From Candidatus Eiseniibacteriota bacterium (lineage in GTDB: Bacteria > Eisenbacteria > RBG-16-71-46 > CAIMUX01 > VGJL01), in the NCBI GenBank assembly GCA_963792585.1, contig CAWBWI010000003.1:1268292-1332291 (forward strand): DNA of 64,000 nt, read 5' to 3'. A program made the translations under genes and the position numbers. Under the pieces are notes generated by a model. That model was not told the origin of the DNA, made no database searches, and saw nothing but the letters and a program-made list of their open reading frames with translations. Below, in pieces: positions 7,966 through 48,774 of the stretch (its first letter is position 1; every line of letters starts with the position of its first letter).

Positions 7966-8120
7966 CTCTCCGCTGGTTCTGGGTCCCTCACAGAGATGCG
8001 CGGCCAAGCTCGGACCGCGTGGCGCGACCCGGAGTCCGCATGGATGTTCCTTGGTCGAATCCGATGGCCGCGCGATCCAAGGACAGCAGTCGGCGCACCC
8101 GCCCACCTCAGGAGGTGTCT

Positions 8121-9083
8121 ATGCAGAGATTTGTTAGAGGAGTCGCCGCGCTCGCATGTTTGGGGATTCTGGTCTTGCCCCAAATTGCGGTTGCCCAGTA
8201 CTCACAGGACTTCGAAGGGCTGAGTGGATCAGCCGCCGGCGTGGTCCTGACCGGGCAGGATGGCTACTACCTTCCCGGTGGAGTTACGAATACCGACTTT
8301 CTGTGCTACACATACGCGGGAAACGCCCTCGGAATCGTCCAGAATCCCGAGGGGGGCGCCCAGTTCATCGGTGGCACAGGCCCCGGTGATGGCGTCACGT
8401 ACGCCCGCGCGGAACGCGGCGTGAATCTCGGCCCAGGCCGCTGGGAACTCTGGTACGACTTCTGCGGGATCTACACCGGGGCCCCTCCGGGATCGAACAA
8501 TCTCGGGAGCTTCTCCTTGCGCCAGGCCTCCGCGAACACCGTGCACATCAACCTCTTCACATGGGTCGACCCCAACAACCCCACGGCGATCAACTCGACC
8601 TACGTAGCGTATGACGCGGGCGGCACCCAGTTCCCGATCCCGGGAACCCCGCCGGGGCCGGAGTGGGCGAATCTCATGCCCAACCACTGGTATCGCTGCC
8701 GGACCGTCGTGGACCTCGACGCGAATACGATCGTTGAGGTCGGGATCCGCGATCTATCAGGTGGCGGTGAGGCCGTGTACATCCCTACCGGCTGGTATCT
8801 CATCGGAGGGGCCGGGGGTTTTGCTCCGCCTGATGGAATCCGGTTCTTCGGCGGCGGTGGGACGCAGGGGAACACCACGTGTTGGGACAACGCGATCGTC
8901 CGCGAGGCAGTCAGCGTCCCTCAGGGCGCCTGCTGTCTGCCCGGCGGCGGTTGCCTGATCACTACAGAGGCTGATTGCCAGGGCGAGTACCAGGGTGATG
9001 ACTCCGTCTGCGATCCGAATCCGTGCGAACCGTCGCCGGTTCAGCGGATCACCTGGGGCGCTCTGAAGAACCAGTACCGCTAG
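8121..9083 (+). CDS. Secreted protein with GACC Cys module and TWGALKNQYR tail
   Basis: GGAGGT RBS; signal peptide ending AVA; GACCLP..C..C.G.YQGD..CDPNPC module; ends SPVQRITWGALKNQYR. Confidence 0.85.
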   Translation: MQRFVRGVAALACLGILVLPQIAVAQYSQDFEGLSGSAAGVVLTGQDGYYLPGGVTNTDFLCYTYAGNALGIVQNPEGGAQFIGGTGPGDGVTYARAERGVNLGPGRWELWYDFCGIYTGAPPGSNNLGSFSLRQASANTVHINLFTWVDPNNPTAINSTYVAYDAGGTQFPIPGTPPGPEWANLMPNHWYRCRTVVDLDANTIVEVGIRDLSGGGEAVYIPTGWYLIGGAGGFAPPDGIRFFGGGGTQGNTTCWDNAIVREAVSVPQGACCLPGGGCLITTEADCQGEYQGDDSVCDPNPCEPSPVQRITWGALKNQYR

Positions 9084-9286: not shown

Positions 9287-12127
9287 TCAATCCATCAGGA
9301 TCATCTTTCGTGCGGTCGCCTGTCCGGCCGCGCGGAGGCGATAGAAGTAGATCCCGCTGGCGGCCCGCCGATCCTCATCGTTGCGTCCGTCCCAGACAAC
9401 AACGTGGGGACCAGCATCGAGCGGCGAGGAAACCAGACGACGGACCACGCGCCCGGTGACGTCCAGGATCTCGAGTTCCGTCTGACATGCCTGTGGGAGC
9501 GAGAAGCTGATCTGCGTTTGAGGCTGGAATGGGTTGGGCATGTTCTGGCTGAGTTGCAGGAACGCGCCACCGCTCACTGCAGATTCGATGACATCGGCAG
9601 GGGCAATGCAGGATTCGAGATAGAGCTGAGCGAAATCCACGCCGGTGTCGTCCGCGACGATCAGTCGCAACTGTCCGTCGGCCAGGAACGGCAGAAGGTT
9701 GATCGGTCCGGTAGCCGTTGGGAGGGCGGATAGATCCAGCAAGAAGGTTGCGGTCTGACCGGCGTTCCACGTTCCGCCGGCTCCCGGCAAGAGGCGAATC
9801 GCGCTGCCCCAGCCCGCCCACGTCGCCGGGCAGCTGGTCGGGTCGAGGAGCTCCAGCGCAATGATGTCATTGAAGGTGCCGCCACTGCCCAATCCGGTCG
9901 TACCGCGCACCCGGACGGAGAGGAACGCACGTGTCGGCGGAGTGAAGGTGAACGTGTGGGCGATCCACGCGTTCGCGGGGACGCTGCCCTCACCCGGAAT
10001 CTGATCGAAGTTTGCCAACGAGACACCCCAACAGCTCGCGATCCAACTCGTGAGGCCGGCGTCCGGCGATGCCGGGTCAGGCGTCACGAAGTTGTCGAAC
10101 GCGCCGGCCAAGAGCTGATACTGGAGCGGCTGCGGGCAGGGAGGGCAGCAGCAGGCCGTCTCGAGCTCCATGTAGTCGATGTTGCAGTCATCTTGCGTGA
10201 GGATGTCCAGACTTCCCGTCGTCAAGAGCGGAAGGATGTTCACGGTGCCGGTTGCGGTTGGCAGCGCCGATAGATCGAGACAGATCGTCCGATCCGTTCC
10301 GTTCCATCCTGGGATCAGGTCCATGAGGTGGCGTCCCCAAGCCCACGTCCCCGTGCAACTTCCTGGAAGGCCGAGGCAAATGTAGTCGGTGGTGTACAAG
10401 CTGCTCTCCGAACGCAGCTTGATGCAGAGCTTTGCCGACTGGACACCCGTGGAGCAGGTGTTGCACAGATTGAAGCTCTGGGCAAACCAACGATCGGAGC
10501 CGGTCTGATCGAAGTTCCGCAGGGGGGGATGCGTCGGCGCGCACGTGGCCATCCAGTTGGACAGCGCTGCGCTCGGCTGGGCAGCCTCGGATCCAACGTA
10601 GTTGTCTTTCGTCCCCGCGATCTGCGTCGAGAAGTACTTCCGCGGGCAGGTCTCCGGCGAACAACAGGTCGTGATATCCAGACGCACGAAATCGAAGTCC
10701 GTGTCGTCCTGTGAGAGGAACTCCAGGCTTCCGCTCGCCAGCAAAGGCAGGAGGTTGATCCCGCCAGGGAGATTCGCAAGGTCGAGGCAGAAGAGCTGTG
10801 ATTCTCCGGTGGTCCATGTGCCCCCGTTGCCGGGGAGGTCCTTGACGAATGTCGAGAAGGCAGAGTGTGGAGCGACACCGCCGCAACCGGGTTGGTTGAT
10901 CAACTTCAGGTTTATCGTATCGTTCGCAGGGTCGCTACCCAAGGCGGTAGCTCGGAAGCACAGGTTCGCCGCCAACACCTCGCAAGCGGGGAAATTGAAC
11001 GTATGGAGCCGCCATCTGTTGATCGTTGCATCATCAAAACCGGCCGCCGCCAGATAGCCGGGGAAGCACTGTTGCATGAAGGCATTCAGAACGAGGTCCG
11101 GGCTCATGGGGTCGAACCCACCACCGAAGTTGTCATCTACGCCCGCAGTCACGGACGAAGCGAAGCCGGTCCCCGGACACCCGCCGCAAGTGTTGCACGT
11201 GAGTGTTCCCAGGTTGCCGTAGCACCGGCCCGAAGGCCACGGAACGGTCCAAGGTTGAGTGCAGGAGGGGCTCGTGATACTCCAGTAGGCCCCTGCATGA
11301 ACGCCGGAACATCCGGGGATACGTGTGCGGAACCTACCGAAGATGTCCGTGATCACGGACTTGGATCCGACGAGTCCTCCGTTGTCATGGAACTCCACAG
11401 TGGCCTTCGCGATCCTGAGCGGGGATCCGTCATCGCAAACAAGGCGGCCGCGCAGTTTCCTGAAGAGGGACAGGCCGAAGCTGGCGTCATACGGTTGGCC
11501 GAAGACGGTCTGACATGAAGTCCACTGTGGAAAGCCGAAGTAATCGCTGCGGAACTGGCTGTCGAGGCCCGTCACGGCCCCGGCCGCCAGGCGTCCCCAC
11601 TGCGGTGGGTAGACATGGTCGTCCGCCTGGACGCTCAGCCAGTATCTCTGATCCGGCTCCAGGGGAACATCCACATCCGCCGCGTAACTGTAGAGCGGGA
11701 ACGCTCCCTGGTTTCCGACGAATGTCTCGGTGACGGATGGGAGCAGCCACTCGGCGATGACGGAGTTGGGCTTGCCTTCACTGTCATCGTACAGAACGAT
11801 GTTGAAGCCTTGGACATGAGGGTTGCCCGGCGTGTAGTTGAAGTACCCGCCCCACCACTCGATTCTCCCGAGATCGAGCTCCTCGCCGACGACGAAGTCA
11901 TTGGCGACCTCGGTCTCCACTCCGTCGGCGCCGATCAGCTCCGAAGAAGCGATCAATCCGTTCAAGTTGGGTGGATCCATCCAGGTGGAGTCGGGGTCAT
12001 CGGGTCGGGTGAGGGCCGTGAGAATGCTGCGCGGTCCGAGTCCTCCCGCCGAAACTTGTGGTTCCGCCGCGCTGGCGGTCGATCCTACGACAACGAGCGC
12101 TAGAAGCGCGCCCCATATCACCTTCAT
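9287..12127 (-). CDS. Large secreted Cys-rich protein with three tandem ~175-aa repeats and FlgD-Ig/T9SS-like CTD
   Basis: Signal peptide MKVIWGALLALVVVGSTASA; three repeats AGxxDN[FY]...LDLxxLP...N[LI]LPxL..G.L...DD...D[FY]; C-terminal QNMPNPF...WDGRNDEDRRAASGIYFY. Confidence 0.88.
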   Translation of the reverse strand: MKVIWGALLALVVVGSTASAAEPQVSAGGLGPRSILTALTRPDDPDSTWMDPPNLNGLIASSELIGADGVETEVANDFVVGEELDLGRIEWWGGYFNYTPGNPHVQGFNIVLYDDSEGKPNSVIAEWLLPSVTETFVGNQGAFPLYSYAADVDVPLEPDQRYWLSVQADDHVYPPQWGRLAAGAVTGLDSQFRSDYFGFPQWTSCQTVFGQPYDASFGLSLFRKLRGRLVCDDGSPLRIAKATVEFHDNGGLVGSKSVITDIFGRFRTRIPGCSGVHAGAYWSITSPSCTQPWTVPWPSGRCYGNLGTLTCNTCGGCPGTGFASSVTAGVDDNFGGGFDPMSPDLVLNAFMQQCFPGYLAAAGFDDATINRWRLHTFNFPACEVLAANLCFRATALGSDPANDTINLKLINQPGCGGVAPHSAFSTFVKDLPGNGGTWTTGESQLFCLDLANLPGGINLLPLLASGSLEFLSQDDTDFDFVRLDITTCCSPETCPRKYFSTQIAGTKDNYVGSEAAQPSAALSNWMATCAPTHPPLRNFDQTGSDRWFAQSFNLCNTCSTGVQSAKLCIKLRSESSLYTTDYICLGLPGSCTGTWAWGRHLMDLIPGWNGTDRTICLDLSALPTATGTVNILPLLTTGSLDILTQDDCNIDYMELETACCCPPCPQPLQYQLLAGAFDNFVTPDPASPDAGLTSWIASCWGVSLANFDQIPGEGSVPANAWIAHTFTFTPPTRAFLSVRVRGTTGLGSGGTFNDIIALELLDPTSCPATWAGWGSAIRLLPGAGGTWNAGQTATFLLDLSALPTATGPINLLPFLADGQLRLIVADDTGVDFAQLYLESCIAPADVIESAVSGGAFLQLSQNMPNPFQPQTQISFSLPQACQTELEILDVTGRVVRRLVSSPLDAGPHVVVWDGRNDEDRRAASGIYFYRLRAAGQATARKMILMD

Positions 12128-12473
12128 CGAAAGTCCCCCTTCGTTCGCCATTGTCGCTGAGGTGAATCGCCTCTCGACAACCGTCCGGTTTTCGAATGAT
12201 TTCGGGATCCGAGGGCTCGATCACTGTCGCAAGTTCATGACGTCCGGCCAACGGTCGGTTCGTCCACGGATCCCGCTTGGCAAATTGCGTTCGTGTCGAC
12301 ACGGCGCAGTGCGATTGACCATGGGATACGGATCGGTGGGGGGAATCTAACTGGGAAACGACAATGCTCGGGCGATAGGTTCAAGTGAGCGAGTTCACGC
12401 TCGCTTCTCGCGGGGGCGTGTTCCCGAAAATGGGCTCGATGAAGAATGGGGGGGGAAGTTGCTCGGGCTCCGA

Positions 12474-15029
12474 TTACTTTTGCGCTGAATCCCCGGCGCG
12501 CAGGTCTCCCGGATCCCCGACCAGCACAAACGCGGCCCAGAGTGCCGGGTTCTCGAATGGACGGCTTCCGTCGGGATCGCGGAACTCCCGGAGCCAGCGC
12601 TTGGCCTCTTGCAGGGCGAGCGGTCTGGACATCGGAAGTCCCGTACCGCCCGAGCGCCTGTCCGTGTAGGAGCCGGTCAGATTCTCGTAGAATCGCTCCA
12701 TCAGGAGGGCGGTGGCCCTGTCATCGACCGACCAGAGGGCGACGAGGAGGCTTCTGGCTCCCGTCAGGAATAGAGCCTGACAGAGGCCACTCACGGGCTC
12801 CGTAAAGTAGAAGGCTCCGACGTCGCTTCTGCAGGAACTCAGGGTCACGAGGTCTGCATTCAGGTGCCACGTTGAGAGGATGTCCTGCGGCCGCAGGCAG
12901 TCGCGTTCGTCGCCATCCGCCGATAAAGGTGTGCTTGGCAGAGTCCCCGGCCCTAGTGAGAAGACGAGAGCGGACTCCATTGGACGGGTTCCCGACACGA
13001 CGGCATGCGTCGCGATGTGAATGAGATCGAATTCCCGCAACGAGTCCGACGCTGCCAACCGTAGCAGACCTGCTTTCTGTCCTCCTCCACCCAGCACAAC
13101 CGTCGTGCCCCGAAACAGGCGCGCGAGGCCGCGGATCTCGTCTCTGACGCCGGGCAAAGAGCCCAGGCCGATGCGACTCGATCCCGCGGATGGATCGCGG
13201 GATCCGAGGACGGCGACGCCCGGTTCCTCGCCGTGATCACCCCCGACCAGGAGAGCGCGCCACGATGCCTGTGGCCGTTGGCGGCGATGCGCTTCATGCA
13301 TGCGGACGAAGAGCGTGGAGGACGGAATGTAGGAGACCTCGAAGCGATCGCCGAGGAACGTTCCCGTCGAATCCAAGAGCGACTCGAGGGCGGCGCGGTG
13401 AATACTTCCCGCCTTCACGACATAGATCCGGCGAATGCCGCCCAGGTGCGGGATGAGCGGGGTGATGCGCTCCGTGTATGCCGCCCGAGCGAGCGTCATG
13501 AGTTCGGTGTTCATCGGCGCATGCAGGGGCCACTCTCCCGAATTGCGTAGTGTTGTCATGTACGAACTCATCGTGACACTCCGCGCTCCGTCCGGGGATC
13601 CTGGCGGCGCGTCGACTCTGACCCACGCGATCGGACAGGAGGCGCGGATGACATACCCCCAGTACGGGTAGTCGATGACATCGGAGCGGTTGCGACTGCC
13701 CTCGAGCCATCCCATCACCGCGGCATCGGCGGGGAGGATCCGCTGAAGCTCCTGGACGGAGCAGAATCGGGAGTCGGTGGGTGGATCGAGGTCGGCCCAT
13801 TCCATCGCGCTCGAGGAGTCGGGGGGAATGAGCTGATCGAGAAGAGACCGGCTCAAACCCCGTTCGAGCGAACTCCAAGCTCTGTCGCTCTTCCCCTGCA
13901 TCATCTCGAACATGGCGACCTTCCACCAATCCGCGAGGCCGTGATTCGGGGGATACCCCTTCAGCCCTTCCCGAAGGAAGTCCTCGTGGAGCCGAACCGA
14001 GGCGAGGGCGTACCGCTCCGCTTGCTCGAAATCGCCCCTCCTCTCGAATGTGTCGGCGCATAGGCTGAGGATGAGCGCTCGACTCTCGGGACTGACGGCG
14101 TTGGGCCGCGATGCGACGATCCGAGAGGCCGATCGCAAATAGGGTTCGGCATTTGCCCAGTGACCGCGCTGAAGGTGCACCAGTCCGATCGAGCACAGCG
14201 CCTCGGCGATCTCGGGGTCATCAGGGGGGAGCAGCCGCCGACGTATTCGCAAGCATCGGTCGAGGAGTTCGAGCGCGGAGTCATAGTTCCGTTCCGCCCG
14301 GCGCACGTCCGCGAGGTCGTGGAGACTCTCGCCGACCTCGAGACTCTCGTTGCCGAAAAGGGTGCGCCTGAGATCCATGGCCTCCGTGTGCAGGGATTCC
14401 GCCTGGTCGAAGCGGTAGAAGTTCTTCGCGGAGCGACCTAGGGCGGCCGCGCTCTCCGCGACCAGCGGATGTCGATCACCCAAGATGGCCCGCCGAATAT
14501 CGTGGCCCTGCTTGCGCAGCGCGGAGGCTCCCGCGCGATCTCCGCGCAGATACCTGATCTCTCCCAACGTCATGAGCGATGCGGCGGCGTCGACGTGATC
14601 CGACCCCAGGAGACGTTGGCGCGTGTTGAACTGCCGTTGTGCCATGTCGTATGCGCGGCGATAGCTGCCGCTCAGGATCAGGTCGTGGATCGTCCGATCC
14701 GCGCGGTCCGCCTCTGCCAGTGTCTCCCGGCACGAGTCGGGCAGAGCCGCCGCAAGATCGCACGTCCGGATCAGGCGGTCCGCGTCCTCTCGCTTCCAGG
14801 ATGGCACGTCGGGAACGGTTCCCAGCCCTTCGGCGAGGCGAATGGCGAGACCCATGGCCTCGTCATAGCGTCCCGCCTCGCGCAGGTCCTCGACGCCGTC
14901 CGCTCGCGCAGCCTTCGTGGCATCGCGTGGAGCGGTCGCCGGCTGGACCAACAGAGCCGAGAGCAGAACGACGCAGAGCCCAATGGCCCGAACGCGGAGT
15001 CCTCGAATCGTCATGAAAGAACGTTCCAT
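12474..15029 (-). CDS. TPR-CHAT domain (caspase-like, clan CD) protease with N-terminal signal/TM segment
   Basis: Kinesin-light-chain-like TPRs (LLGSDH, ILGDRHP, LFGNES, LLPPDDP). CHAT motifs SYIPS, LPGVRDE, IHIATHA (His), LVTLSSC (Cys), LWSVDD and WAAFVLVG. Start codon uncertain. Confidence 0.9.
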   Translation of the reverse strand: MERSFMTIRGLRVRAIGLCVVLLSALLVQPATAPRDATKAARADGVEDLREAGRYDEAMGLAIRLAEGLGTVPDVPSWKREDADRLIRTCDLAAALPDSCRETLAEADRADRTIHDLILSGSYRRAYDMAQRQFNTRQRLLGSDHVDAAASLMTLGEIRYLRGDRAGASALRKQGHDIRRAILGDRHPLVAESAAALGRSAKNFYRFDQAESLHTEAMDLRRTLFGNESLEVGESLHDLADVRRAERNYDSALELLDRCLRIRRRLLPPDDPEIAEALCSIGLVHLQRGHWANAEPYLRSASRIVASRPNAVSPESRALILSLCADTFERRGDFEQAERYALASVRLHEDFLREGLKGYPPNHGLADWWKVAMFEMMQGKSDRAWSSLERGLSRSLLDQLIPPDSSSAMEWADLDPPTDSRFCSVQELQRILPADAAVMGWLEGSRNRSDVIDYPYWGYVIRASCPIAWVRVDAPPGSPDGARSVTMSSYMTTLRNSGEWPLHAPMNTELMTLARAAYTERITPLIPHLGGIRRIYVVKAGSIHRAALESLLDSTGTFLGDRFEVSYIPSSTLFVRMHEAHRRQRPQASWRALLVGGDHGEEPGVAVLGSRDPSAGSSRIGLGSLPGVRDEIRGLARLFRGTTVVLGGGGQKAGLLRLAASDSLREFDLIHIATHAVVSGTRPMESALVFSLGPGTLPSTPLSADGDERDCLRPQDILSTWHLNADLVTLSSCRSDVGAFYFTEPVSGLCQALFLTGARSLLVALWSVDDRATALLMERFYENLTGSYTDRRSGGTGLPMSRPLALQEAKRWLREFRDPDGSRPFENPALWAAFVLVGDPGDLRAGDSAQK

Positions 15030-15320
15030 CGCATCCCCAAGCGGAGGAGAATCAGCGGCCGCTTCACATCCGGGTATGTAACAGTTCCGAGGCGCACCGG
15101 CTTGATCTCGACTCCAGCAGGGCAATGCTAGGGGAGCGACGACGAAAACGATTGTGGAAGTGTGGGGTATAAACAAAACTCACCAACCATGCCTCTCGGA
15201 TAAGGGTGGGATCTGCGAACCGAGCGGTTCTCGATTGTGCAGAACTTCCCATCCGGCTATGGTCGCCGGTTGATTCGGCAACCGACCATCGGCGGCGACA
15301 GTGGAGGACGGCTGGGGGAC

Positions 15321-16103
15321 ATGGAGAGAAACTCGGGCGCGGCAGGTCCGATCGAACTGCCGAGCCCCCAAACGGAAAGTGAAGGCTCCGGACCGCTATG
15401 GGCGGGTGAGATTGCCCAGCTCTGCCGGCATCTCCCGCCCGCCACCCGAATGGACGAGCCGATGGAACTCCTTGAACGGCTGTGGCTTGTCGTCAACCTA
15501 GCAGTTTGTCGATATCTACGAATTCACAGCGCGCGCTTCGCCTCGGTGCGTCCGGAAGATATCGAGGATCTCGGCTCACAAAAGACGTTAGAACTCCTCG
15601 AGAGAATCGTCTCTGGTTCATGGGACCTGTCCAACCGAACGGCGGCTGAAATTGCCGCCTATATCTCGGCATCGGCACGGAACGCTCTGCTGGATCAAGG
15701 CCGTAGGGCAGTGCGGTTGGTCCGACCGGAAGATCATGAGTGGGAGCGGACGATGAGCGAATCGACACCGGAGTCGCTTGGGAGCGCTCGGAACGATGAT
15801 TGGGTCGATGCGGAAGCGTTCTCCCGCGATCTGCTGGGTTGTCTTGCAGGCCTTGCGCCGCGTGCGCGTCTCGTCTGGTTCTTTCGAGCATTCTATGAGC
15901 TCTCCAGCCGGGAGATCGCCGAACATCCGAGGATCAAGCTCGAGGTCGGACACGTGGACGTTCTGATGCAACGCACCCGAACTGCCATCCAGCAGTGCCT
16001 TCGGAAGGCAGGACACGAGGCCACCGAAATCCCGGCCGGCGTCTATGCGAGAATCTGGGATGTGTCCCGAACCTGGGCCCAGACGGAAGGGAATGACGGG
16101 TGA
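15321..16103 (+). CDS. ECF-family RNA polymerase sigma factor
   Basis: Region 2 (EDIEDL..., AYISASARNALLDQGRR) and region 4 (CLAGLAPRAR...LSSREIA...RTRTAIQQCL). Start uncertain. Confidence 0.82.
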   Translation: MERNSGAAGPIELPSPQTESEGSGPLWAGEIAQLCRHLPPATRMDEPMELLERLWLVVNLAVCRYLRIHSARFASVRPEDIEDLGSQKTLELLERIVSGSWDLSNRTAAEIAAYISASARNALLDQGRRAVRLVRPEDHEWERTMSESTPESLGSARNDDWVDAEAFSRDLLGCLAGLAPRARLVWFFRAFYELSSREIAEHPRIKLEVGHVDVLMQRTRTAIQQCLRKAGHEATEIPAGVYARIWDVSRTWAQTEGNDG

Positions 16104-16891
16104 TGAGCCACCACCCAGACGACGACCAGTTGCTGGATCTGGTTCTCGATCTTCTGCCGCGGGAGAAGGAAGGGCATGTTCTCGATCACGTCGCCCACTG
16201 CCGTGCCTGTGAATCCAGAATGCGGAGCCAGGCGGGAGAGATGGAGCGCCTCGCACCGGAAGCTTCCGCGGCAGTGCTGCGACACGCCGCAATTCTAGGT
16301 GGGACTCAACATCGGGTTGGCGCCTCCGCCGCGCGTCGAGGCCTGTCGGTTGCAGAACGGATCCGTGGCTGGTTGGGTAGGCCGTGGACCGTTCGAAGGC
16401 TCCTGCCGGTGGGCGGGCTCGCGGGAGGCCTGGCCCTGCTCCTGATCCTCGTGATTCCGCGGGACCCGACGCCCGAATCGCAGCTCGAAGCCAATTGGCT
16501 GCCGTCGTCTCCCGCCCTCGTTCAGCGCGGAGGCACAAAGGACAATGCCCTGTCGGGGCGGCTGGCGGAGGGGCTGGCGGCCTATTATCGGCACGACCTG
16601 GCGAATGCGATCCGGAATTTGGAAGAAGCGACCGTTCCCTACGAACTCGAGCCGTTTCGAAGGCTCTACCTCGCCAACGCGCTCACCCTGTCCGGGGACT
16701 ATGCCCAGGCTGTGAAGGTCCTCCGGAAGTACTCGCCCGACTTTCTTCCGGAGCCCTGGGCCACGGAGGGGAACTGGACGCTGCTGGTGGCATTCGAACG
16801 GTCGGGGCGGCGCGCCAGCGCCGACTCTTTACGCCGACTGCTCTCCACGCGCCCCGGCCAGATCGGGGAGCGGATCCGGCGCTTGCGCTGA
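16100..16891 (+). CDS. zf-HC2 membrane anti-sigma factor with extracytoplasmic TPR-like domain
   Basis: HPDDDQL...HVAHCRAC (Hx3Cx2C); TM segment GGLAGGLALLLILVI; TPR-like helices after it; start overlaps the sigma stop (GTGA). Confidence 0.85.
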   Translation: MMSHHPDDDQLLDLVLDLLPREKEGHVLDHVAHCRACESRMRSQAGEMERLAPEASAAVLRHAAILGGTQHRVGASAARRGLSVAERIRGWLGRPWTVRRLLPVGGLAGGLALLLILVIPRDPTPESQLEANWLPSSPALVQRGGTKDNALSGRLAEGLAAYYRHDLANAIRNLEEATVPYELEPFRRLYLANALTLSGDYAQAVKVLRKYSPDFLPEPWATEGNWTLLVAFERSGRRASADSLRRLLSTRPGQIGERIRRLR

Positions 16892-16960
16892 CGTAGACGA
16901 CGGATCGTACCCTTTCTGGTACCCTCCTTCGATGCACGAAGCGAATTCAACTGACCGGCG

Positions 16961-19900
16961 TTGGAGCCTTCTCTGATCCCGGAAGGAGATAAGGGGCCGG
17001 AGGGACCGGCGGGAGACCCGGCGTCGCAGCTGCCGTCCGAGGATCCGTCGCAGCACGATGCGACGGTCGATCTTCGCATGTCCCCTCCCGCCGGTGCGCC
17101 GACTCCGGCGAACCCCGATCAACCCGCGGCAACGCAGGTCGGCCGCTATCCGATTCTGCGGGAACTCGGCCGAGGCGGAATGGGGGTCGTCTATCTCGTC
17201 GAGGATCCGACGCTCGGTCGCACCGTGGCACTCAAACGGGTTCCGGAATCCCTCGCCCAGGATGCGGCCCGCCTCGAGCGCTTCCGACAGGAAGCGCGAC
17301 TCCTCGCGTCCCTGAATCATCCCAATATTGCGACCATCCACTCTCTCGAGGAGGCCGACGGGGTTTGCTTTCTCACGATGGAAGCCATCGCCGGGGAGAC
17401 CCTCGCGGATCGTCTGAAGCAAGCTCCCCTTGCCCTCGAGGAATCGTTGCGGATCGCGCGTCAAATCGCCCGGGCAGTCGAGACGGCCCACAAGCGGGGG
17501 ATCGTGCATCGGGACCTGAAGCCGGGCAACATCATGTTCACCCCCGATCTCGATGTGAAGGTGCTCGACTTCGGCCTTGCGTCGTTCGCGGACGGGACGG
17601 GCGTATTCGGCGGATTCGGAACCGAATCCGAGTCCACCGTTTCCGAGGTTTCCGGGACGCCGGGGTATATGAGCCCTGAGCAGATCGAAGGCGCCGCCTC
17701 GGATCCTCGAATGGATGTCTGGGCTTTCGGCTGCATCCTGTTCGAATGCCTCACGGGTGAGCGCGCCATCCGCGGGAAAACCCTCATGGAGAGGATGCGA
17801 AGCACCTCGGCGGACCGGCCCGACCTGAACCTCCTTCCCACGACCTCTCCCGCCGCGCTTCGGGAGATGCTCAAGCGATGCCTCGCCCACAGCGCCGCGG
17901 ATCGATCTCCATCCATGTCGGAGCCGAGGCAGGTCGTCGAGGAGCTTCTCGCGGAACTCACGTTTCAGCCCGGCCGGTCGGATCCTTCCGAGGACCGCGG
18001 CGCAATTCCGAACAATCTTCCCCGGCACGGCTCCACATTCATCGGGCGGACCGCCGAGGTGGCCGGGGTGGCGAATCTGCTCGCCGATCATCGGCTCGTG
18101 ACCTTGACGGGCATCGGGGGTGCGGGGAAGACGCGGCTCGCGCTCCGCGTGGCGGAAACGCTGCTCGGGACGACTTACGACGGTATCTGGTTCGTGGAAC
18201 TGGCTCCCCTCTCCAGTTCCGAGGACATCGCCGGCACGATCATGGTCACCCTCGGCATTCCGGAGTCGCTCGACCGCACGCCGATCCAGGCCGTTTCCGG
18301 GCACCTGGCGGCGAGGCGGACCCTTCTGGTGATCGATAACTGCGAGCATGTGATCGAAGGAGCGGCGCGGATCGCGAGCGCGCTCCTGCGGGACGCGCCC
18401 GGCCTGCGAATTCTCGCCACCAGTCGCGAGCGGCTCGCCGTCGATGGTGAGGTCTGCTACGCCACTCCGTTGCTCGAGTTGCCAGATCGATCCGGGCCCC
18501 TCGACGTTGCCGCGGCGGCGCGATGCGCCGCGGTCGAGCTGTTCCTCCAACGGGCCCGGCAGGTCGGCGCGACGATCGAGTTGAGCGAGTCGAATGCGCC
18601 GGCGATCGTCGAGATCTGCCGTCGGCTCGACGGAATCCCCTTGGCCATCGAGCTCGCGGCCTCACGTCTGAAGATGCTGGGGGTTGAGGATGTCCTCCGC
18701 CGGATGGACGATCGATTTCGCCTCCTGACCGGAGGAGCCCGGGGAGATCTCCCGCATCATCGCACGCTGCGCGCCCTCATCGACTGGAGCTACGAGCAAC
18801 TCGACCCCGCGGAACAGGCTCTCATGCAGCGCCTCTCGGTATTCGCCGGAGGCTGGACGCTGGAGGCCGCGGAGGCGGTCGCCGCCGGCGGCGAGGTGAA
18901 CGGCTGGGACATCCTGGATCTCTCCTCGCGGCTGGTGGACAAGTCCCTCATCGTGGCGGATGCCGCATCTTCCGACGGAACAACCCGATTCCGAATGCTG
19001 GAGACGGTGAGGGCATACGCCGCCGAGCGACTCGAGGGTGGGGACGAGGGGGCGGAGATTCGCCGGCGTCATCGAGACTACTTCGTGGCGCTCGTCACCC
19101 GGGCGGAGCCGGAATTCACCGGCAAGGAGCAGGCCAGGTGGTACTCGCGAGTCGCCGCGGAGCACGATGAGATCCGCCGGGCCTTCGAGAGCTGCCGGGA
19201 GCCCGACGCGGATCCGGCCATCGGTCTCCGTCTCGCCGGTGCCCTCTTCCGTTACTGGTTCACTCGGGGACACTGGACCGAAGCCGATACCTTGTGCCGC
19301 GAGGTGCTCCTCCGGGCCAACGCACTTGCTCCAACCGCGGACACGGCGAAGGTTCTGAACAGCATCGGCGCGGTCGCAATCCATCGGGGACATCTCGACG
19401 AGGCGCGGCGCTACTGGCGGGAGACGCTCGACGTCTGGACGGCACTCGACGATCCGGCGGGCATGGGCGCGGCTCGACTCAACCTGGGCAACGTCTCCTA
19501 TAGCGCCGGCGACTATGCGTCGGCAGCCCGCGACTATACCGAGAGCCTCGAGATCTACCGCCGTCTGGATCAGCCCGATGGAATCTGCCGGGTACTCATC
19601 AGCCTGGGCAATGTCGCCCTTGCGCAGGGGGATTACGAACAGAGCCGGACCTACGCCCGGGAGTCCGTGGAACGGCTGCGGCGAATGGGCCACGCCGAGT
19701 TGACCGCCCACGCGCTGATCACGCTCGGAACCGCCGAGGTCCGGCTGGAGAGAAACGAAGAGGCCGCGCAGCACTATCAGGAGAGCCTCGAGATACAGAA
19801 GGAGCTGGGAGATCGACGGAACATTGCGATCGCCACGATCAACCTCGCGGTTGTCTTCCTCGCGGAGAAGCGCTTCTCGGAAGCTCACGCTCGCTTCTGT

Positions 19901-20218
19901 GACGCCGCGTCGATGTTCCTTGCCCTGGGCAACGTGACGAACGTCGCGTCCGCTCTGGAGGGACTGGCAGCGCTCTCCGCGGAGTGCGGCAACGACGCAA
20001 ACGCCGTCAAGGCCTATGGATCCGCCGCGGCCATCCGGTCCGCGGCCGGGATGCCGCCCATGCCGGACGAAGAGCGTCTCGTGGAGAAGACGCTCGACAG
20101 CGCACGTCTCCGCCTTGGAGACGCGCAGGTCTCGCGCCTCTTCGCCGAGGGTCAGTGCCTGACCGCTGACGCTGCCGTAGAGTGGGCGCTGCGCGAGATC
20201 ACGCCTACTGACGGCTAG
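16961..20218 (+). CDS. Ser/Thr protein kinase - STAND (AfsR/NB-ARC-like) ATPase - TPR protein
   Basis: GRGGMG, VALK, HRDLKPGN, DFG, GTPGYMSPE; Walker A GIGGAGKT; Walker B LLVIDNCEH; GIPLAIELAA; C-terminal TPRs. Start uncertain. Confidence 0.93.
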   Translation: MEPSLIPEGDKGPEGPAGDPASQLPSEDPSQHDATVDLRMSPPAGAPTPANPDQPAATQVGRYPILRELGRGGMGVVYLVEDPTLGRTVALKRVPESLAQDAARLERFRQEARLLASLNHPNIATIHSLEEADGVCFLTMEAIAGETLADRLKQAPLALEESLRIARQIARAVETAHKRGIVHRDLKPGNIMFTPDLDVKVLDFGLASFADGTGVFGGFGTESESTVSEVSGTPGYMSPEQIEGAASDPRMDVWAFGCILFECLTGERAIRGKTLMERMRSTSADRPDLNLLPTTSPAALREMLKRCLAHSAADRSPSMSEPRQVVEELLAELTFQPGRSDPSEDRGAIPNNLPRHGSTFIGRTAEVAGVANLLADHRLVTLTGIGGAGKTRLALRVAETLLGTTYDGIWFVELAPLSSSEDIAGTIMVTLGIPESLDRTPIQAVSGHLAARRTLLVIDNCEHVIEGAARIASALLRDAPGLRILATSRERLAVDGEVCYATPLLELPDRSGPLDVAAAARCAAVELFLQRARQVGATIELSESNAPAIVEICRRLDGIPLAIELAASRLKMLGVEDVLRRMDDRFRLLTGGARGDLPHHRTLRALIDWSYEQLDPAEQALMQRLSVFAGGWTLEAAEAVAAGGEVNGWDILDLSSRLVDKSLIVADAASSDGTTRFRMLETVRAYAAERLEGGDEGAEIRRRHRDYFVALVTRAEPEFTGKEQARWYSRVAAEHDEIRRAFESCREPDADPAIGLRLAGALFRYWFTRGHWTEADTLCREVLLRANALAPTADTAKVLNSIGAVAIHRGHLDEARRYWRETLDVWTALDDPAGMGAARLNLGNVSYSAGDYASAARDYTESLEIYRRLDQPDGICRVLISLGNVALAQGDYEQSRTYARESVERLRRMGHAELTAHALITLGTAEVRLERNEEAAQHYQESLEIQKELGDRRNIAIATINLAVVFLAEKRFSEAHARFCDAASMFLALGNVTNVASALEGLAALSAECGNDANAVKAYGSAAAIRSAAGMPPMPDEERLVEKTLDSARLRLGDAQVSRLFAEGQCLTADAAVEWALREITPTDG

Positions 20219-23072: not shown

Positions 23073-23738
23073 ATGAGACTTTTGTTAGCTGCATTGATGG
23101 TAGCTGCGTGCTTCGGGGTCATGGCGACCGTCGCCACCGCGGAGCACATCACGATCGCTCCGGAGGGCACCGACATCGTTCCTCCGGGTGGTGGCGGTCG
23201 CGTGCCCTGTGACGTCACCCTCCGTTATGACGACGGAATCGACGACACTCCGGGCAGCGGACCGACGCTGGGCTGGTATACGGGTACGAATTACCAGTTC
23301 CTCGGTGTTCGGTTCACGCCGGCAGCGGACCAGTCCTACATGGTCCAGAGCGCGAGCTGGTATTCCGATTTCTGGGTCCTTCCCGGCAACGTCGACGTTG
23401 AGGCACAGGAATGGGGCAACCCAACCAACATGACCTCGGCGACGATCAACGTTACCGGCGGCGGCACCTGGGAGGTCGAGTTCGCCACCCCGATCTGCAT
23501 TCCGCGGGGTGGGGAGTACGTCATCATGATCTGCCCGCAGCGGAACGTCTTCGGTGTGGTCGGAGAGGACCTGTCCTCGCCCGACGGACGTTCTTACTGG
23601 GTGGCGGATCCGGGCGGATGCGCCCCCGTGAATGCGTCCGGCGGGAATGACTACATGATCTGGTCCTGCGTGACCCCTTGCGGCGCGACGCCGACCGAGG
23701 GCAGAAGCTGGGGACAGGTCAAGAGTCTCTATCGCTAG
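23073..23738 (+). CDS. Secreted protein with SWGQVKSLYR tail
   Basis: AGGAGG RBS; signal peptide ending ATA; LRYDDG...GVRFTP beta-rich domain; ends TPTEGRSWGQVKSLYR. Confidence 0.87.
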   Translation: MRLLLAALMVAACFGVMATVATAEHITIAPEGTDIVPPGGGGRVPCDVTLRYDDGIDDTPGSGPTLGWYTGTNYQFLGVRFTPAADQSYMVQSASWYSDFWVLPGNVDVEAQEWGNPTNMTSATINVTGGGTWEVEFATPICIPRGGEYVIMICPQRNVFGVVGEDLSSPDGRSYWVADPGGCAPVNASGGNDYMIWSCVTPCGATPTEGRSWGQVKSLYR

Positions 23739-45449: not shown

Positions 45450-48400
45450 CTATGGGGGGGGTGTCTGTGCGAAGGCGACGATGTCTTCCGGGGTCATGGC
45501 CTGACCCTGCGCCCGAATGGAGGCGAACACGTCTTCGCCCAGTTCCGTCCGCAGGCGATCCAGGTGTGCCCGGCGGTCCTCCCGATCGGGATCGGGCAGG
45601 GGTGTCTTGGTCCGCAACCGCATGGTTTCCGTCGCGGCGATGATCCGCAGCGCGCGCGAAGGCTGCTCGGCGGCCTGCTCGAGTTGCGCCATGGCCTCCA
45701 GGCACCAGATGAGCTGCATCGGGTTCTGAAACTCTCGCTCGATCGACAGCGCTTCGCAGAGATCCCGGCGCGCGGCGTCGAAGGCGCCCAGCTCGATCCG
45801 CGCCATCGCCACGGAGCGCAGCGCCTTGCCTTCGTTCGTCCGGTTCGAGGTCCCGCGCGTCATCGCCAGGGACTCCTCCGCGAGTTGCAGCGCACGGTCC
45901 GGTCGCCCGAGATTTCTCACCGTCGTGCTGAGGTTGCCCAGCATGGTCGCGATGCCGACGGCGTCGCCCGTCTCGCGAAAGATCGTCAGCGCATCCTGGA
46001 AATAGCCTTCCGATCGGGAGTGATCGCCGCGCCGGGAGGCGAGGATCCCGAGGCTGTTCAGCCTGTTGGGTATGGGGCCCAGGTTTCCCATCTCGCGGTC
46101 GATCGCGATCGACTCCTCGATACGGTCCCGCGCCAGATCCCACTCCGCCCGCTCGACCGCGACGATGCCGAGAATCGCGAGCACGGCCGCGGTACCCTTC
46201 TTGTCCCCGCCGGCGCGCATGCGGTCGAGCGCCTCCTCTCCGAAATGGAGCGTGCTCTCATAGTCCGAATAGGCCACGGTGAGCGAGGCCGCGAGGTAGA
46301 GAAGTTGCGTTCGGTCGTCCTCGCTGAGGATGTCTTGCTGGAGCAATCCCTGGACGTAGCCGAGACCTTCCCGCAGATGGCCGTGCAACAGCCAGAAGCG
46401 CCGCAGGGTGGCGACGATCCGAATGGCTCGGTCGATCTCCCTGCCCTGCCCGATACACCAGTCTAGGATCGAGCGGAGGTTCTCGTGCTCCGCCGCGAAA
46501 CGGTCGATCCATGGAGGCTCGCGGGGGGTGCTCATATCCGGTTTGGCGCGTAGCGTGAGCTCGTGGTAGTAGCCAAGAAGGAGCGTTCGAGTTTTCAGTT
46601 CTTCCGCAGGATCCAGTCGGTCCATGGAGAAGCGTCGCACCATCTCGAGCATACGGTAGGTGGGGCGGGTCGCGTCCGGCTCGTCCGTGGATTGCGTCTC
46701 GGATTGGACGAGCGATTTCTCCGCCAGCGCGCGCAACACGTCTCCGACCTCGCGTGAACCGATAACCGCGATCCCGCTCCCCTCGGCGATCGCATCGGCG
46801 CAGGCGCGCTCCGCAGCTTCCAGGCTCCATCGACCGGCAAAGAGGGCCAGCCGTTGGAGAAGTCGCTGTTCTTCCGGAGAGAGGAGCCGGTAGCTCCACT
46901 CGATACACGCCTGGATCGTCCGATGATGGGGAGCCGCCTCATCCCGACCGCCGGAGAGGAGGCGAAAGCTCTCTTCCAGGCGGGAGGCGATCTGTTCCGT
47001 GCCGAGGGCGGTCACGCGCGCCGCGGCGAGTTCGATCGCCAGCGGTATCCCCTCCAGGCGGCGGCAGATCCGGGCGATGGACGGAGCGTTCAGGGGTGTC
47101 AGGGCGAATCCGGGTCGACTGCCGCGCGCTCGATCTACGAATAGCTGAACCGACTCGCATGCGGCGAGATCTCGATCCGGATCGGTCTCTCTGGAGAGGG
47201 TCGCCTCCGGGATCTCCATGGGGCCGACGTCGAATCGCACCTCACCCGAGACGCCGAGTTCCTCGCGGCTGGTGGCGAGGATCCGCATCCCGGGACAGTC
47301 TCGAAGGATGCGCTGGAGAAGTGCGGCGACCGCAGGACGCAGGTGCTCGCAATTGTCGAGGGCGAGGAGTCCGTTGCGCTCCCGCAGATGTTCGACCAGT
47401 TGGTCCTCGACCTCCTCTCGCCCCTGTTCCCGAACGCCGATGGCATGGGCGATCTCGAGCGGGAGACTTTCGGGAACCGCGAGGGGCGCCAGGTCGATCC
47501 AGTGGGCGCCGTGCTCGATGGCACCGTGGAGGTGCAGGGTTGCGCGCAACGCGAGCCTCGTCTTCCCGCTGCCACCGGCGCCGACCAATGTCACGAGGGG
47601 ATGAGCCAGCACGAGCCGCCGGACCTCGGCCAACTCCCGTTCCCGGCCTATGAAGCGACCGATCTCCTGCGGTAGGTGGGACGGACGCTCGGCATCCAGG
47701 GACGCTGGTGGGGCCGGAATGCTCGTCTCGATCGCCGCCCGCATTTCCGCGGCGGTAGGATAACGTCCGGCGGGATCCTTGTGGAGCGCGCGCTCGATTG
47801 CCTCGGCCAGGGGGCCGGGAAGCTCAGGGCGACGCTCTCGGAGGTCGATCGGCGTGACCTCCCGGACGCGCGCCGCCAACTCCTCGTGCGTCCTCGCCAT
47901 GATCGGATAGCTGCCCGTAGCGAGCCGGAAGAGAAGGACGCCCAGCGCATAGAGATCGGAACGGACGCTCGAGGGCTCGCCGTCGAAGAGCTCGGGCGCC
48001 ATCATCAACGGGGTTCCGGTGACGGAATGCGTGGTCTCTCCGCCTCGCTGCCGTCCGCCGCGCAGATCCGCGCCCGCCCCGAAGTCCATCAGAACGGTTC
48101 TTCCACCCACCTCTCGCATCACGTTGGAGGCTTTGACATCGCCGTGGACGACGCCTGCAGCGTGGACGGCCGCCAGGGCACGGCAGAGGTCGATGCCGAT
48201 CCGCGCGAGCTCGCCGGGATCGAAGACGCCATCGCCGACGAGTACCCCTTCGAGGGTCTTCCCGTGGATGTACTCGGTCCACATCCCCGCGCGGGAGTCG
48301 TGAACCTCGATGCCGTGGATGATCAGGACATTCGGGTGACGCACGCGCGCCAGTCTGCGCGCCTCGTCCATCGGGGCGGCGGATGTCCCGGCAGGGGACG

Positions 48401-48599
48401 CTACGGTTTCGCGGGCGAGCTTGAGCGCGACTTCCCGCTGCAGCACGGGTTCGAACGCCCGGAAGACCTCTCCGAAGCTCCCTTCGCCGATCTTCTCGAG
48501 AACATGGAGGGGTCCCCAGGGAAACGACCCGGACGGCGGAGGCGTCTGTCCGGGCGAATCGCCCGGCCGACCGACTTTGCGACGTCTAGTGGGGCCCAT
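45450..48599 (-). CDS. Ser/Thr protein kinase (non-RD) - STAND ATPase - TPR protein
   Basis: GEGSFG, VALK, HGDVKASN, DFG, GTPLMMAPE; Walker A GAGGSGKT; LALDNCEH; GIPLAIELAA; TPRs. Start uncertain. Confidence 0.93.
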   Translation of the reverse strand: MGPTRRRKVGRPGDSPGQTPPPSGSFPWGPLHVLEKIGEGSFGEVFRAFEPVLQREVALKLARETVASPAGTSAAPMDEARRLARVRHPNVLIIHGIEVHDSRAGMWTEYIHGKTLEGVLVGDGVFDPGELARIGIDLCRALAAVHAAGVVHGDVKASNVMREVGGRTVLMDFGAGADLRGGRQRGGETTHSVTGTPLMMAPELFDGEPSSVRSDLYALGVLLFRLATGSYPIMARTHEELAARVREVTPIDLRERRPELPGPLAEAIERALHKDPAGRYPTAAEMRAAIETSIPAPPASLDAERPSHLPQEIGRFIGRERELAEVRRLVLAHPLVTLVGAGGSGKTRLALRATLHLHGAIEHGAHWIDLAPLAVPESLPLEIAHAIGVREQGREEVEDQLVEHLRERNGLLALDNCEHLRPAVAALLQRILRDCPGMRILATSREELGVSGEVRFDVGPMEIPEATLSRETDPDRDLAACESVQLFVDRARGSRPGFALTPLNAPSIARICRRLEGIPLAIELAAARVTALGTEQIASRLEESFRLLSGGRDEAAPHHRTIQACIEWSYRLLSPEEQRLLQRLALFAGRWSLEAAERACADAIAEGSGIAVIGSREVGDVLRALAEKSLVQSETQSTDEPDATRPTYRMLEMVRRFSMDRLDPAEELKTRTLLLGYYHELTLRAKPDMSTPREPPWIDRFAAEHENLRSILDWCIGQGREIDRAIRIVATLRRFWLLHGHLREGLGYVQGLLQQDILSEDDRTQLLYLAASLTVAYSDYESTLHFGEEALDRMRAGGDKKGTAAVLAILGIVAVERAEWDLARDRIEESIAIDREMGNLGPIPNRLNSLGILASRRGDHSRSEGYFQDALTIFRETGDAVGIATMLGNLSTTVRNLGRPDRALQLAEESLAMTRGTSNRTNEGKALRSVAMARIELGAFDAARRDLCEALSIEREFQNPMQLIWCLEAMAQLEQAAEQPSRALRIIAATETMRLRTKTPLPDPDREDRRAHLDRLRTELGEDVFASIRAQGQAMTPEDIVAFAQTPPP

Positions 48600-48774
48600 C
48601 GATCTCCCTGATGATCGTCGGAGCGGTGTCGTCCGATTCGACGAAGCTACCACGATGGTCGTGTAGGGGTCCACGCGGGGAACCGACTCGGGGGGGCGCC
48701 CGACATTCGCGAAACCAAGAAGGGCGACCGCACCGTCCGGAGCGGCCGCCCTTCCACGAATCCTCGGTCGTCGA

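Follow-up and report, generated by a model that had tools for sequence, protein, structure and literature searches.

A two-protein, DdvA-like switch predicted in Candidatus Eiseniibacteriota: a separate TPR-CHAT protease as candidate site-1 enzyme of a membrane anti-sigma factor

Why should the gene for a caspase-like protease lie beside the genes for a sigma factor and its membrane-bound inhibitor? The question is raised by a 64,000-nucleotide (nt) stretch of a Candidatus Eiseniibacteriota genome (GenBank assembly GCA_963792585.1, contig CAWBWI010000003.1, positions 1,268,292 to 1,332,291; hereafter the window). Here a gene for a TPR-CHAT protein stands divergent from the gene of a sigma factor of the extracytoplasmic function (ECF) type, which is coupled to a gene for a zinc anti-sigma factor and followed by one for a kinase-STAND-TPR protein. 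A preliminary description, made from the letters alone, had proposed that the CHAT protein cleaves the anti-sigma factor from across the envelope and that the kinase supplies a cytoplasmic input. TPR-CHAT proteins are widespread, and few of them have a known substrate. Our analysis makes it fairly probable that the locus encodes a trans-envelope switch resembling DdvA of Myxococcus xanthus in two proteins rather than one, in which a predicted exported TPR-CHAT would be the site-1 protease of a predicted membrane anti-sigma factor and would cut it after arginine R142. The trans-envelope part of the earlier proposal is supported by gene linkage, by export-like starts of the CHAT proteins and by the near-invariant linker arginine; the kinase input is not.

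The first line of evidence is linkage. The anti-sigma factor has 487 relatives at the 50% cluster level, and when 206 genomes of the phylum were scanned with a 147-sequence profile, 359 places were found at E 1e-5. We examined the best 59 non-self places (E <=1.7e-22; 41 genomes, 8 families) and 21 weaker ones, in genomes that are related and whose counts are not independent trials. An ECF gene of the same family lay directly upstream of the anti-sigma gene in 56 of the 56 loci with upstream sequence. All 30 loci whose flanks reach 5 kb or more in both directions have a CHAT gene within 5 kb. Over the full set of 59 the count is 46, and the 13 loci that have none all end within 2.3 kb downstream. 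By comparison, the background frequency of a CHAT gene within 2 kb of any gene in the window's genome is 0.6%. The usual order is ECF, anti-sigma and CHAT on one strand (40/46). In addition, pattern scans of contig collections gave 4 and 1 loci, and three of the four metagenome loci had a downstream CHAT match. On the evidence of sequence, ECF sigma factor, zinc anti-sigma factor and exported-looking TPR-CHAT are a conserved, CRISPR-independent module.

The second line of evidence lies in the anti-sigma factor. It has no Pfam match at E 0.01, and its zinc domain gave weak profile matches to RsiW, the DdvA N-domain and ChrR (E 0.06-0.1). Nevertheless, H4, H29, C33 and C36 are at least 90% conserved, and the AlphaFold model (predicted local distance difference test, pLDDT, 84.4) has three helices in the zinc domain. 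The ectodomain is a compact TPR with a conserved surface of its own, and its model matches TPR folds (YbgF, Z 12.8, root-mean-square deviation (rmsd) 2.4, 112 residues aligned); the matches listed were generic TPRs alone, without DdvA. The linker between the transmembrane helix and the ectodomain is highly variable (mostly >3 bits per column) except for W-L-P and one arginine. This arginine falls within two residues of its column in 146 of 147 homologues and, by ungapped count, exactly 10 residues after a conserved leucine in 125 of 147, with any other offset reaching at most 16%. The P4 residue is Leu, Val or Ile in 103/146, while Asp, Gly, Ala, Ser and Thr predominate at P1'. In the window the segment reads PALVQRGG and sits about 24 residues past the helix. 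The preliminary description had pointed to this exposed linker, and the near-invariant arginine makes it a likely site-1 target, here predicted to be cut between R142 and the glycine that follows.

The partner enzyme looks active and exported. Its match to Pfam CHAT (PF12770) has an E value of 2e-47 (162 bits against a cut-off of 24), TPR_12 is matched as well, and a His/Cys dyad and caspase-like fold matches complete its assignment to CHAT. An alignment of 61 CHAT domains shows both catalytic residues in every one. Of the partners at the 46 loci, 45 have the His and 44 the Cys, and the exceptions are truncated or broken. A model of the CHAT domain alone, without the TPR arm (pLDDT 85.8), matched Csx29 (Z 18.6, rmsd 3.1, 250 aligned), separase (Z 18.3), gingipain R (Z 17.6) and DdvA (Z 16.0-16.2), and the top match of the core CHAT profile in the PDB was 8ROT, DdvA itself (E 2.7e-5). 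NCBI source names of the homologues are Ca. Eisenbacteria and Krumholzibacteria. Translation of the window's gene likely starts at ATG 15029 or 15014 rather than at TTG 15176. These ATG codons are preferred because a basic n-region and an 18-residue hydrophobic stretch, found by hydropathy, then stand at the N-terminus, giving the signal-peptide-like start described earlier; the intergenic region also favors them over longer open frames, since 15086-15204 is all of it that a related strain retains. Of the 42 full-length partner CHATs (the 46 minus four short ones), 37 were called as starting like a signal peptide or lipoprotein (20 signal-like and 17 lipobox-like) versus 3 of 24 control kinases, using a hydropathy rule of our own, distinct from SignalP, that allows any start codon.

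In separases and gingipain R an acidic residue opens helix alpha1, and a modelling study has separase hold the P1 arginine with two acidic residues at comparable places (PMC4626109). Matched by sequence position, E631 and D770 of the window's CHAT are candidates for such an S1 pocket. The first is Glu in 58 of 61 domains, and the column of the second holds Asp in 53, Glu in 4, Gly in 3 and Ser in 1. D770 aligns with D943 of DdvA, while the S. brodae-type Csx29 chains have no acid there. In a motif of the type 'PDG', the window's CHAT lacks an Asp; its subfamily has PSG or KAG at this place, and the two better candidates for pocket residues are conserved. As a separate observation, locus L028 (2919-7554) is the sole one in the strong family whose anti-sigma factor lacks the arginine, and the candidate pocket residues of its CHAT are altered too; this relative may have switched specificity.

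The same combination recurs in anti-sigma factors of other folds. Six of the eight CHAT genes in the window's genome adjoin an ECF gene and an anti-sigma-like gene, and the other five anti-sigma-like genes fall into two families. Family B has a zinc domain, a transmembrane helix and a non-TPR ectodomain. At 20 of its 143 places, fetched wide and one per genome, CHAT lay within 5 kb in 18, the transmembrane helix was present in 20 and an export signal in 17 of the 18 partners; the arginine was found in 34 of 34 unique sequences. Family C is soluble and without a transmembrane helix. At 20 of its 52 places, CHAT was present in 20 and a transmembrane call in one (at threshold), the arginine was found in 30 of 30 sequences, and the signal rule was positive for 5 of 20 partners, at starts that resemble internal TPR helices. 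As a control, we used a zinc-transmembrane anti-sigma family at 30 of 63 places with 1.5 kb flanks, and its 30 sequences showed no conserved arginine past the helix and no CHAT within 1.5 kb. With exported-looking CHATs beside the membrane proteins of family B and mostly signal-less ones beside the soluble proteins of family C, the compartments of enzyme and anti-sigma factor mostly match. The same arginine in three folds, together with this broad match of compartments, is the strongest evidence we have from sequence comparison that the linker would meet the CHAT active site.

We propose the following sequence of events. At rest, the zinc domain would hold the ECF sigma factor at the inner membrane while the small TPR ectodomain shields the transmembrane helix. 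A ligand from outside, probably a protein or peptide, would then bind the long TPR arm of the CHAT protein and align the dyad. The cut after arginine would shed the ectodomain, an RseP-type protease would cut the transmembrane helix, and the sigma factor would be freed; the window's genome has an M50 protease gene (E 8e-68). We would guess that sigma targets include nearby large secreted proteins.

The closest described system, missed by the preliminary description, which had named Csx29 and Haliangium as comparisons, is DdvA/DdvS of M. xanthus (PMC11506125, PMC6061681; PDB 8ROT, 8RW5, 8RLZ). DdvA carries a zinc anti-sigma domain, one transmembrane helix and a periplasmic TPR-CHAT in a single protein. 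It has been proposed there, as a proposal only, that the CHAT domain is a site-1 protease cutting the juxtamembrane linker in trans, and truncated forms of DdvA are lost in an RseP-dependent manner (PMC11506125). Since that idea is in print, our mechanism is not new in kind. The window shares with DdvA/DdvS an adjacent cognate ECF sigma factor, an N-terminal zinc anti-sigma domain, a single transmembrane helix and a TPR-CHAT with a His/Cys dyad. It differs in that the protease is a separate, divergent gene with its own predicted export signal, in the length of the anti-sigma factor (262 against 991 amino acids), in a zinc site that looks HHCC rather than CHCC, and in the lack of CBASS or CRISPR genes among the scanned reading frames, where DdvA controls an adjacent island. 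The window thus likely holds a two-protein version of the DdvA/DdvS kind rather than a member of that family, because its protease is a separate protein. The fused form is reported from Myxococcota and one Comamonas alone, and the accessible text describes neither split forms nor a conserved arginine site (PMC11506125). More broadly, we found no description of a split exported CHAT/anti-sigma pair or of the arginine site in the literature searched, which was mostly non-subscription and excluded the DdvA supplements. Longer fused relatives of the window's anti-sigma factor were absent from 8000 candidates, which is weak evidence. At locus L073 (5268-8393), through a single frame shift, the N-terminal half of the anti-sigma factor reads on in frame into the CHAT that lies downstream, an architecture like that of DdvA. 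This is probably an assembly error, and it shows an easy route to fusion.

Several observations weigh against the proposed switch. The export calls depend on our own hydropathy rule with its free choice of start codon, and the sampled genomes are kin of one phylum. The window's divergent layout is rare, being found at 1 of 46 relative loci. Among the 21 weaker homologues, 12 have an adjacent CHAT, one has a CHAT 9 kb off and eight have none, and most of those eight still keep the arginine; for these, a CHAT acting in trans or a different enzyme may do the work. Covariation between the arginine and the pocket Asp is not strict. Specifically, the arginine is kept by the anti-sigma factors of three more distant partner CHATs in which Gly replaces the Asp and of two in which Arg/Glu replace Glu/Asp. 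In DdvA, dyad mutants have no phenotype in the absence of signal, and cleavage is a proposal there too (PMC11506125). Finally, a loose cleavage-like pattern, present in 104 of 147 linkers of the window's family, also turns up in control linkers (9 of 30) and in several non-CHAT anti-sigma factors of the window's genome. We rejected this regular expression as a classifier for its poor separation of CHAT-linked from other anti-sigma factors; because the pattern also occurs in controls, only the fixed position of the arginine is diagnostic.

Of the alternatives, the one that survives best is still unlikely: the arginine linker could sit in the CHAT active site without regulated cutting, as a securin-type pseudo-substrate, with the CHAT protein either a co-receptor that protects the anti-sigma factor or an enzyme that the anti-sigma factor restrains until a signal separates the two. 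Docking would equally explain the linkage, the matched compartments and the fixed arginine, and DdvA was solved uncut in its resting state (PMC11506125). Nevertheless, the dyad is kept in 61 of 61 domains, and the linker offers a real arginine with a small residue at P1/P1' and no blocking substitution.

The role of the kinase-STAND-TPR protein bears on a second alternative, which is compatible with the proposed switch. This protein has intact kinase, Walker A and Walker B motifs and lacks a predicted transmembrane helix. That it is a true fourth component in this lineage, giving cytoplasmic input to the sigma or the anti-sigma factor, is distinctly unlikely. The gene lies on the same strand after a short gap of 69 nt with no terminator-like site before it, and the four-gene order is kept in one close strain with about 10% different letters. 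Moreover, nine scattered kinase-STAND-TPR paralogues exist in the window's genome, four of which directly follow a short ECF gene of their own. Conserved order in a close strain is expected from recent descent, however, and this copy is alone among the nine in being near a CHAT gene. No STAND domain occurs at any of the 59 related loci. Of the 30 well-flanked ones, 2 have a kinase within 5 kb, near the background of 4.4% for any gene of the window's genome, and we rejected the kinase as a core part on these grounds. The kinases that do lie nearby in relatives have other architectures and C-termini, and none of the listed positions of kinase homologues in the order falls, by eye, within 5 kb of a listed anti-sigma locus. 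Kinase-activated ECF43 factors have neither the acidic DAED motif nor an anti-sigma factor, although other kinase-linked ECF groups do keep the motif (PMC8999054); the window's sigma factor has both an acidic sigma2.2 motif, DIED, and an anti-sigma factor. The cytoplasmic input assigned to this protein in the preliminary description is therefore not supported, and the gene is probably a local neighbor and bystander rather than a needed input. A second paralogue in the window, at 45450-48674, has no ECF or CHAT gene nearby.

It is very unlikely that the CHAT protein cuts R142 constitutively as maturation, with the pieces staying associated until a signal pulls the ectodomain off. Self-cleaving anti-sigma factors that are cut but stay associated have been described (PMC11506125), and a compact TPR ectodomain with its own conserved surface would suit such a state. 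Yet full-length DdvA is stable and uncut without signal (PMC11506125), and the long TPR arm of the CHAT protein suits gating, as in Csx29. Least probable of all is that the CHAT protein is a mere output of the sigma factor with other substrates and that the arginine matters to a different protease or to the fold. Secreted proteases of other kinds (S8, C25, M43) often lie nearby, and the eight weaker homologues that have no adjacent CHAT mostly keep the arginine. But this reading leaves unexplained both the pairing of soluble anti-sigma factors with signal-less CHATs and of membrane ones with exported-looking CHATs and the recurrence of the arginine in three different folds, and upstream of 42 ECF genes no motif for a self-promoter was found.

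Other known systems share parts of the window's predicted switch. In type III-E CRISPR, Csx29 cuts Csx30 and so relieves inhibition of CASP-sigma (PMC10028731). As in the window, a stand-alone TPR-CHAT is paired with a separate sigma inhibitor, there cut in trans, and Csx29 is the best fold match. Unlike the window's enzyme, Csx29 is cytoplasmic and gated by Cas7-11 and RNA, and it is stated to cut after Met or Leu (PMC11506125); the window scans found neither Cas7-11 nor an array, and the window's CHAT has an export-like start. In the Haliangium type III-B SAVED-CHAT/PCaspase system, CHAT, sigma factor and kinase genes are neighbors, as had been noted earlier. The sigma-inhibitor reading of that locus does not stand, since PCi inhibits PCaspase and not the sigma factor, and SAVED-CHAT cuts PCaspase, neither sigma nor PCi (bioRxiv 10.1101/2023.06.23.546230). 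It also differs from the window in being gated by cyclic oligoadenylate, cytoplasmic and built as a two-protease cascade with a SAVED domain fused to CHAT, where Pfam shows TPR and CHAT only in the window's protein. Separase (PMC4626109; PDB 5FBY) resembles the window's CHAT as a clan CD protease with TPR/helical gating that cuts after arginine with an acidic pocket; it is eukaryotic and cuts cohesin, at ExxR sites rather than the hydrophobic-x-x-R seen here. Further caspase and ECF neighborhoods have been noted (PMC8195603).

The actinobacterial group ECF54 also places an ECF gene beside a TPR-CHAT gene (PMC7826278 supplement; PMC8999054). Its loci include a subtilase and a carboxypeptidase-regulatory-like gene, and proteolytic control has been proposed (PMC7826278, PMC8999054). 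As described in those sources, ECF54 has no anti-sigma factor, whereas the window has a coupled zinc-transmembrane one, and ECF54 is nearer to the soluble family C loci of the window's genome than to its membrane module. Two such cytoplasmic-type modules, L011 (3859-8255) and L012 (4794-10750), lie 13 kb apart in that genome, each with an ECF gene, an anti-sigma-like gene without a transmembrane helix and with the fixed arginine, a signal-less TPR-CHAT gene and an S8 subtilase gene. They resemble the ECF54 context, and by analogy the +1 gene of ECF54 may be an unrecognized anti-sigma factor. Elsewhere in the same genome, L013 (8776-12735), L014 (7932-12031) and L015 (8863-13181) are family B modules. 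At L009 (4787-14287), an exported-type TPR-CHAT gene is divergent from a CHASE2 gene, with OmpA-domain and TPR genes adjoining; this locus has no sigma factor, and no output domain was detected in its CHASE2 gene. The CHAT genes of L013, L014 and L009 are split into two frames or open reading frames, which may be assembly errors. Among relatives, L071 (10273-15208) and L034 have two TPR-CHAT genes near one sigma/anti-sigma pair.

Nothing in the window ties the module to phage defense. In line with the absence of cas genes and of an array stated in the preliminary description, the open reading frames scanned (Pfam, PADLOC) include no cas, CRISPR or CBASS genes, and a repeat scan of 8-24 kb found no CRISPR array; PADLOC returned nothing but generic kinase matches (2 of 19 reading frames), and no Rfam family was found in the window. 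The cas1 gene of this genome is part of a type I-E-like operon some 640 kb distant. This operon (L171 3270-13846, 643-654 kb), recognized by the cas1 match and the look of the translations, is far from all CHAT modules.

The features of the locus are collected in Table 1. All four genes, the dyad, the zinc motif and the membrane helix named in the preliminary description were confirmed, from the reading-frame list, the translations, Pfam and hydropathy. The divergent gap it gave as about 290 bp is 291 nt from CHAT ATG 15029 to ECF ATG 15321, and the coupling of ECF and anti-sigma genes is an overlap of stop and start (TGATG at 16101-16105); the kinase gene, put 70 bp further on, begins 69 nt past the anti-sigma gene.

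Table 1. Features of the TPR-CHAT/ECF/anti-sigma locus (window positions) and one feature of related loci
Feature	Position	Strand	Basis or remark
Secreted-type protein, 954 amino acids, FlgD-Ig tail, downstream of CHAT gene	9287..12151	-	Pfam FlgD_ig; possible target gene (weak)
TPR-CHAT protease	12474..15029	-	851 amino acids from ATG 15029, 846 from ATG 15014; kinesin-light-chain-type TPRs, then CHAT; predicted exported
D770, candidate second acidic S1 residue	12720..12722	-	By position; counts in text
Catalytic Cys C733	12831..12833	-	61/61 aligned CHAT domains
Catalytic His H675	13005..13007	-	61/61 aligned CHAT domains
E631, candidate first acidic residue of Arg-binding S1 pocket	13137..13139	-	By position; Glu 58/61
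h-region of predicted signal peptide or signal anchor	14931..14984	-	Hydropathy; 18 hydrophobic residues
Conserved block of divergent intergenic region, likely promoter-bearing	15086..15204	.	10 changes in 119 nt in related strain
Divergent ECF sigma factor, 260 amino acids, acidic sigma2.2 (DIED)	15321..16103	+	TIGR02937, Sigma70_r4_2, family consensus
Anti-sigma factor, 262 amino acids: zinc (HHCC-type) domain, one transmembrane helix, linker, TPR ectodomain	16103..16891	+	Conservation and AlphaFold model
HxxxCxxC zinc motif	16187..16210	+	Anti-sigma sequence
Transmembrane helix of anti-sigma factor	16403..16456	+	Hydropathy and model
R142, near-invariant linker Arg, predicted P1 (WLP-x8-R)	16526..16528	+	147-sequence alignment
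Ser/Thr kinase-STAND-TPR, cytoplasmic, adjacent	16961..20218	+	Pfam; motifs intact; probably outside conserved module
TANNNT upstream of ECF gene	L032, L036, L044-L048, L051, L052, L055, L062, L064, L066, L069, L073		6-7 nt before start codon

The ECF protein matches TIGR02937 at E 5e-11, just under the cut-off, and Sigma70_r4_2 weakly, and the family consensus of its acidic motif is EDlED. On either side of the block kept in the related strain, the flanks 14991-15086 and 15204-15321 do not align. The block has no sigma70 consensus match, and three intergenic regions scanned for sigma70 sites and terminators yielded no match. An ECF self-promoter was rejected as a candidate, as the Gibbs motif scores obtained upstream of the 42 ECF genes lay near the scores of shuffled sequence, which gave no basis for predicting the regulon. 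In 16 of the 42 loci an in-frame start is preceded at 6-7 nt by a TANNNT box, compared with 1 and 3 in shifted frames, a placement that suggests leaderless, sigma70-type housekeeping transcription of a standby sensor. One RNA run gave coverage on parts of all four genes, from which transcription cannot be inferred because one contig crosses the divergent intergenic region.

As for targets, large secreted proteins with a FlgD-Ig tail make up 18 of 78 flanking genes in relatives versus 268 of 4688 (5.7%) genes in the window's genome, a weak lead given that the tail profile was trained on those same neighbors. Elsewhere in the window, 8019-9083 and 23073-23738 encode secreted-type proteins with no Pfam match that share a C-terminal motif like S/T-W-G-x-x-K-x-x-Y-R. 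The same tail occurs at L034 12714-14126 and may be a sorting signal.

The idea of a periplasmic CHAT domain as site-1 protease has stalled on DdvA, whose trigger is missing and in which a single chain is both enzyme and substrate. With the module split and its cut site predicted to the residue, a direct test with two proteins becomes possible. Looking beyond this locus, stand-alone TPR-CHATs may be a general class of dedicated, arginine-specific site-1 proteases for zinc anti-sigma factors, a proposal whose chances we judge to be evenly balanced. Under it, at least three unrelated outer domains, in both compartments, would follow one hydrophobic-x-x-R linker rule, with each enzyme gated by a ligand of its TPR arm; DdvA would be a fused offshoot, and Csx29/Csx30 one recruited by CRISPR. 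If the predicted switch of the split module holds true, it would supply a rule for the substrates of a large set of caspase relatives in bacteria, along with a signaling route in a poorly studied phylum whose genomes would carry up to six such modules each.

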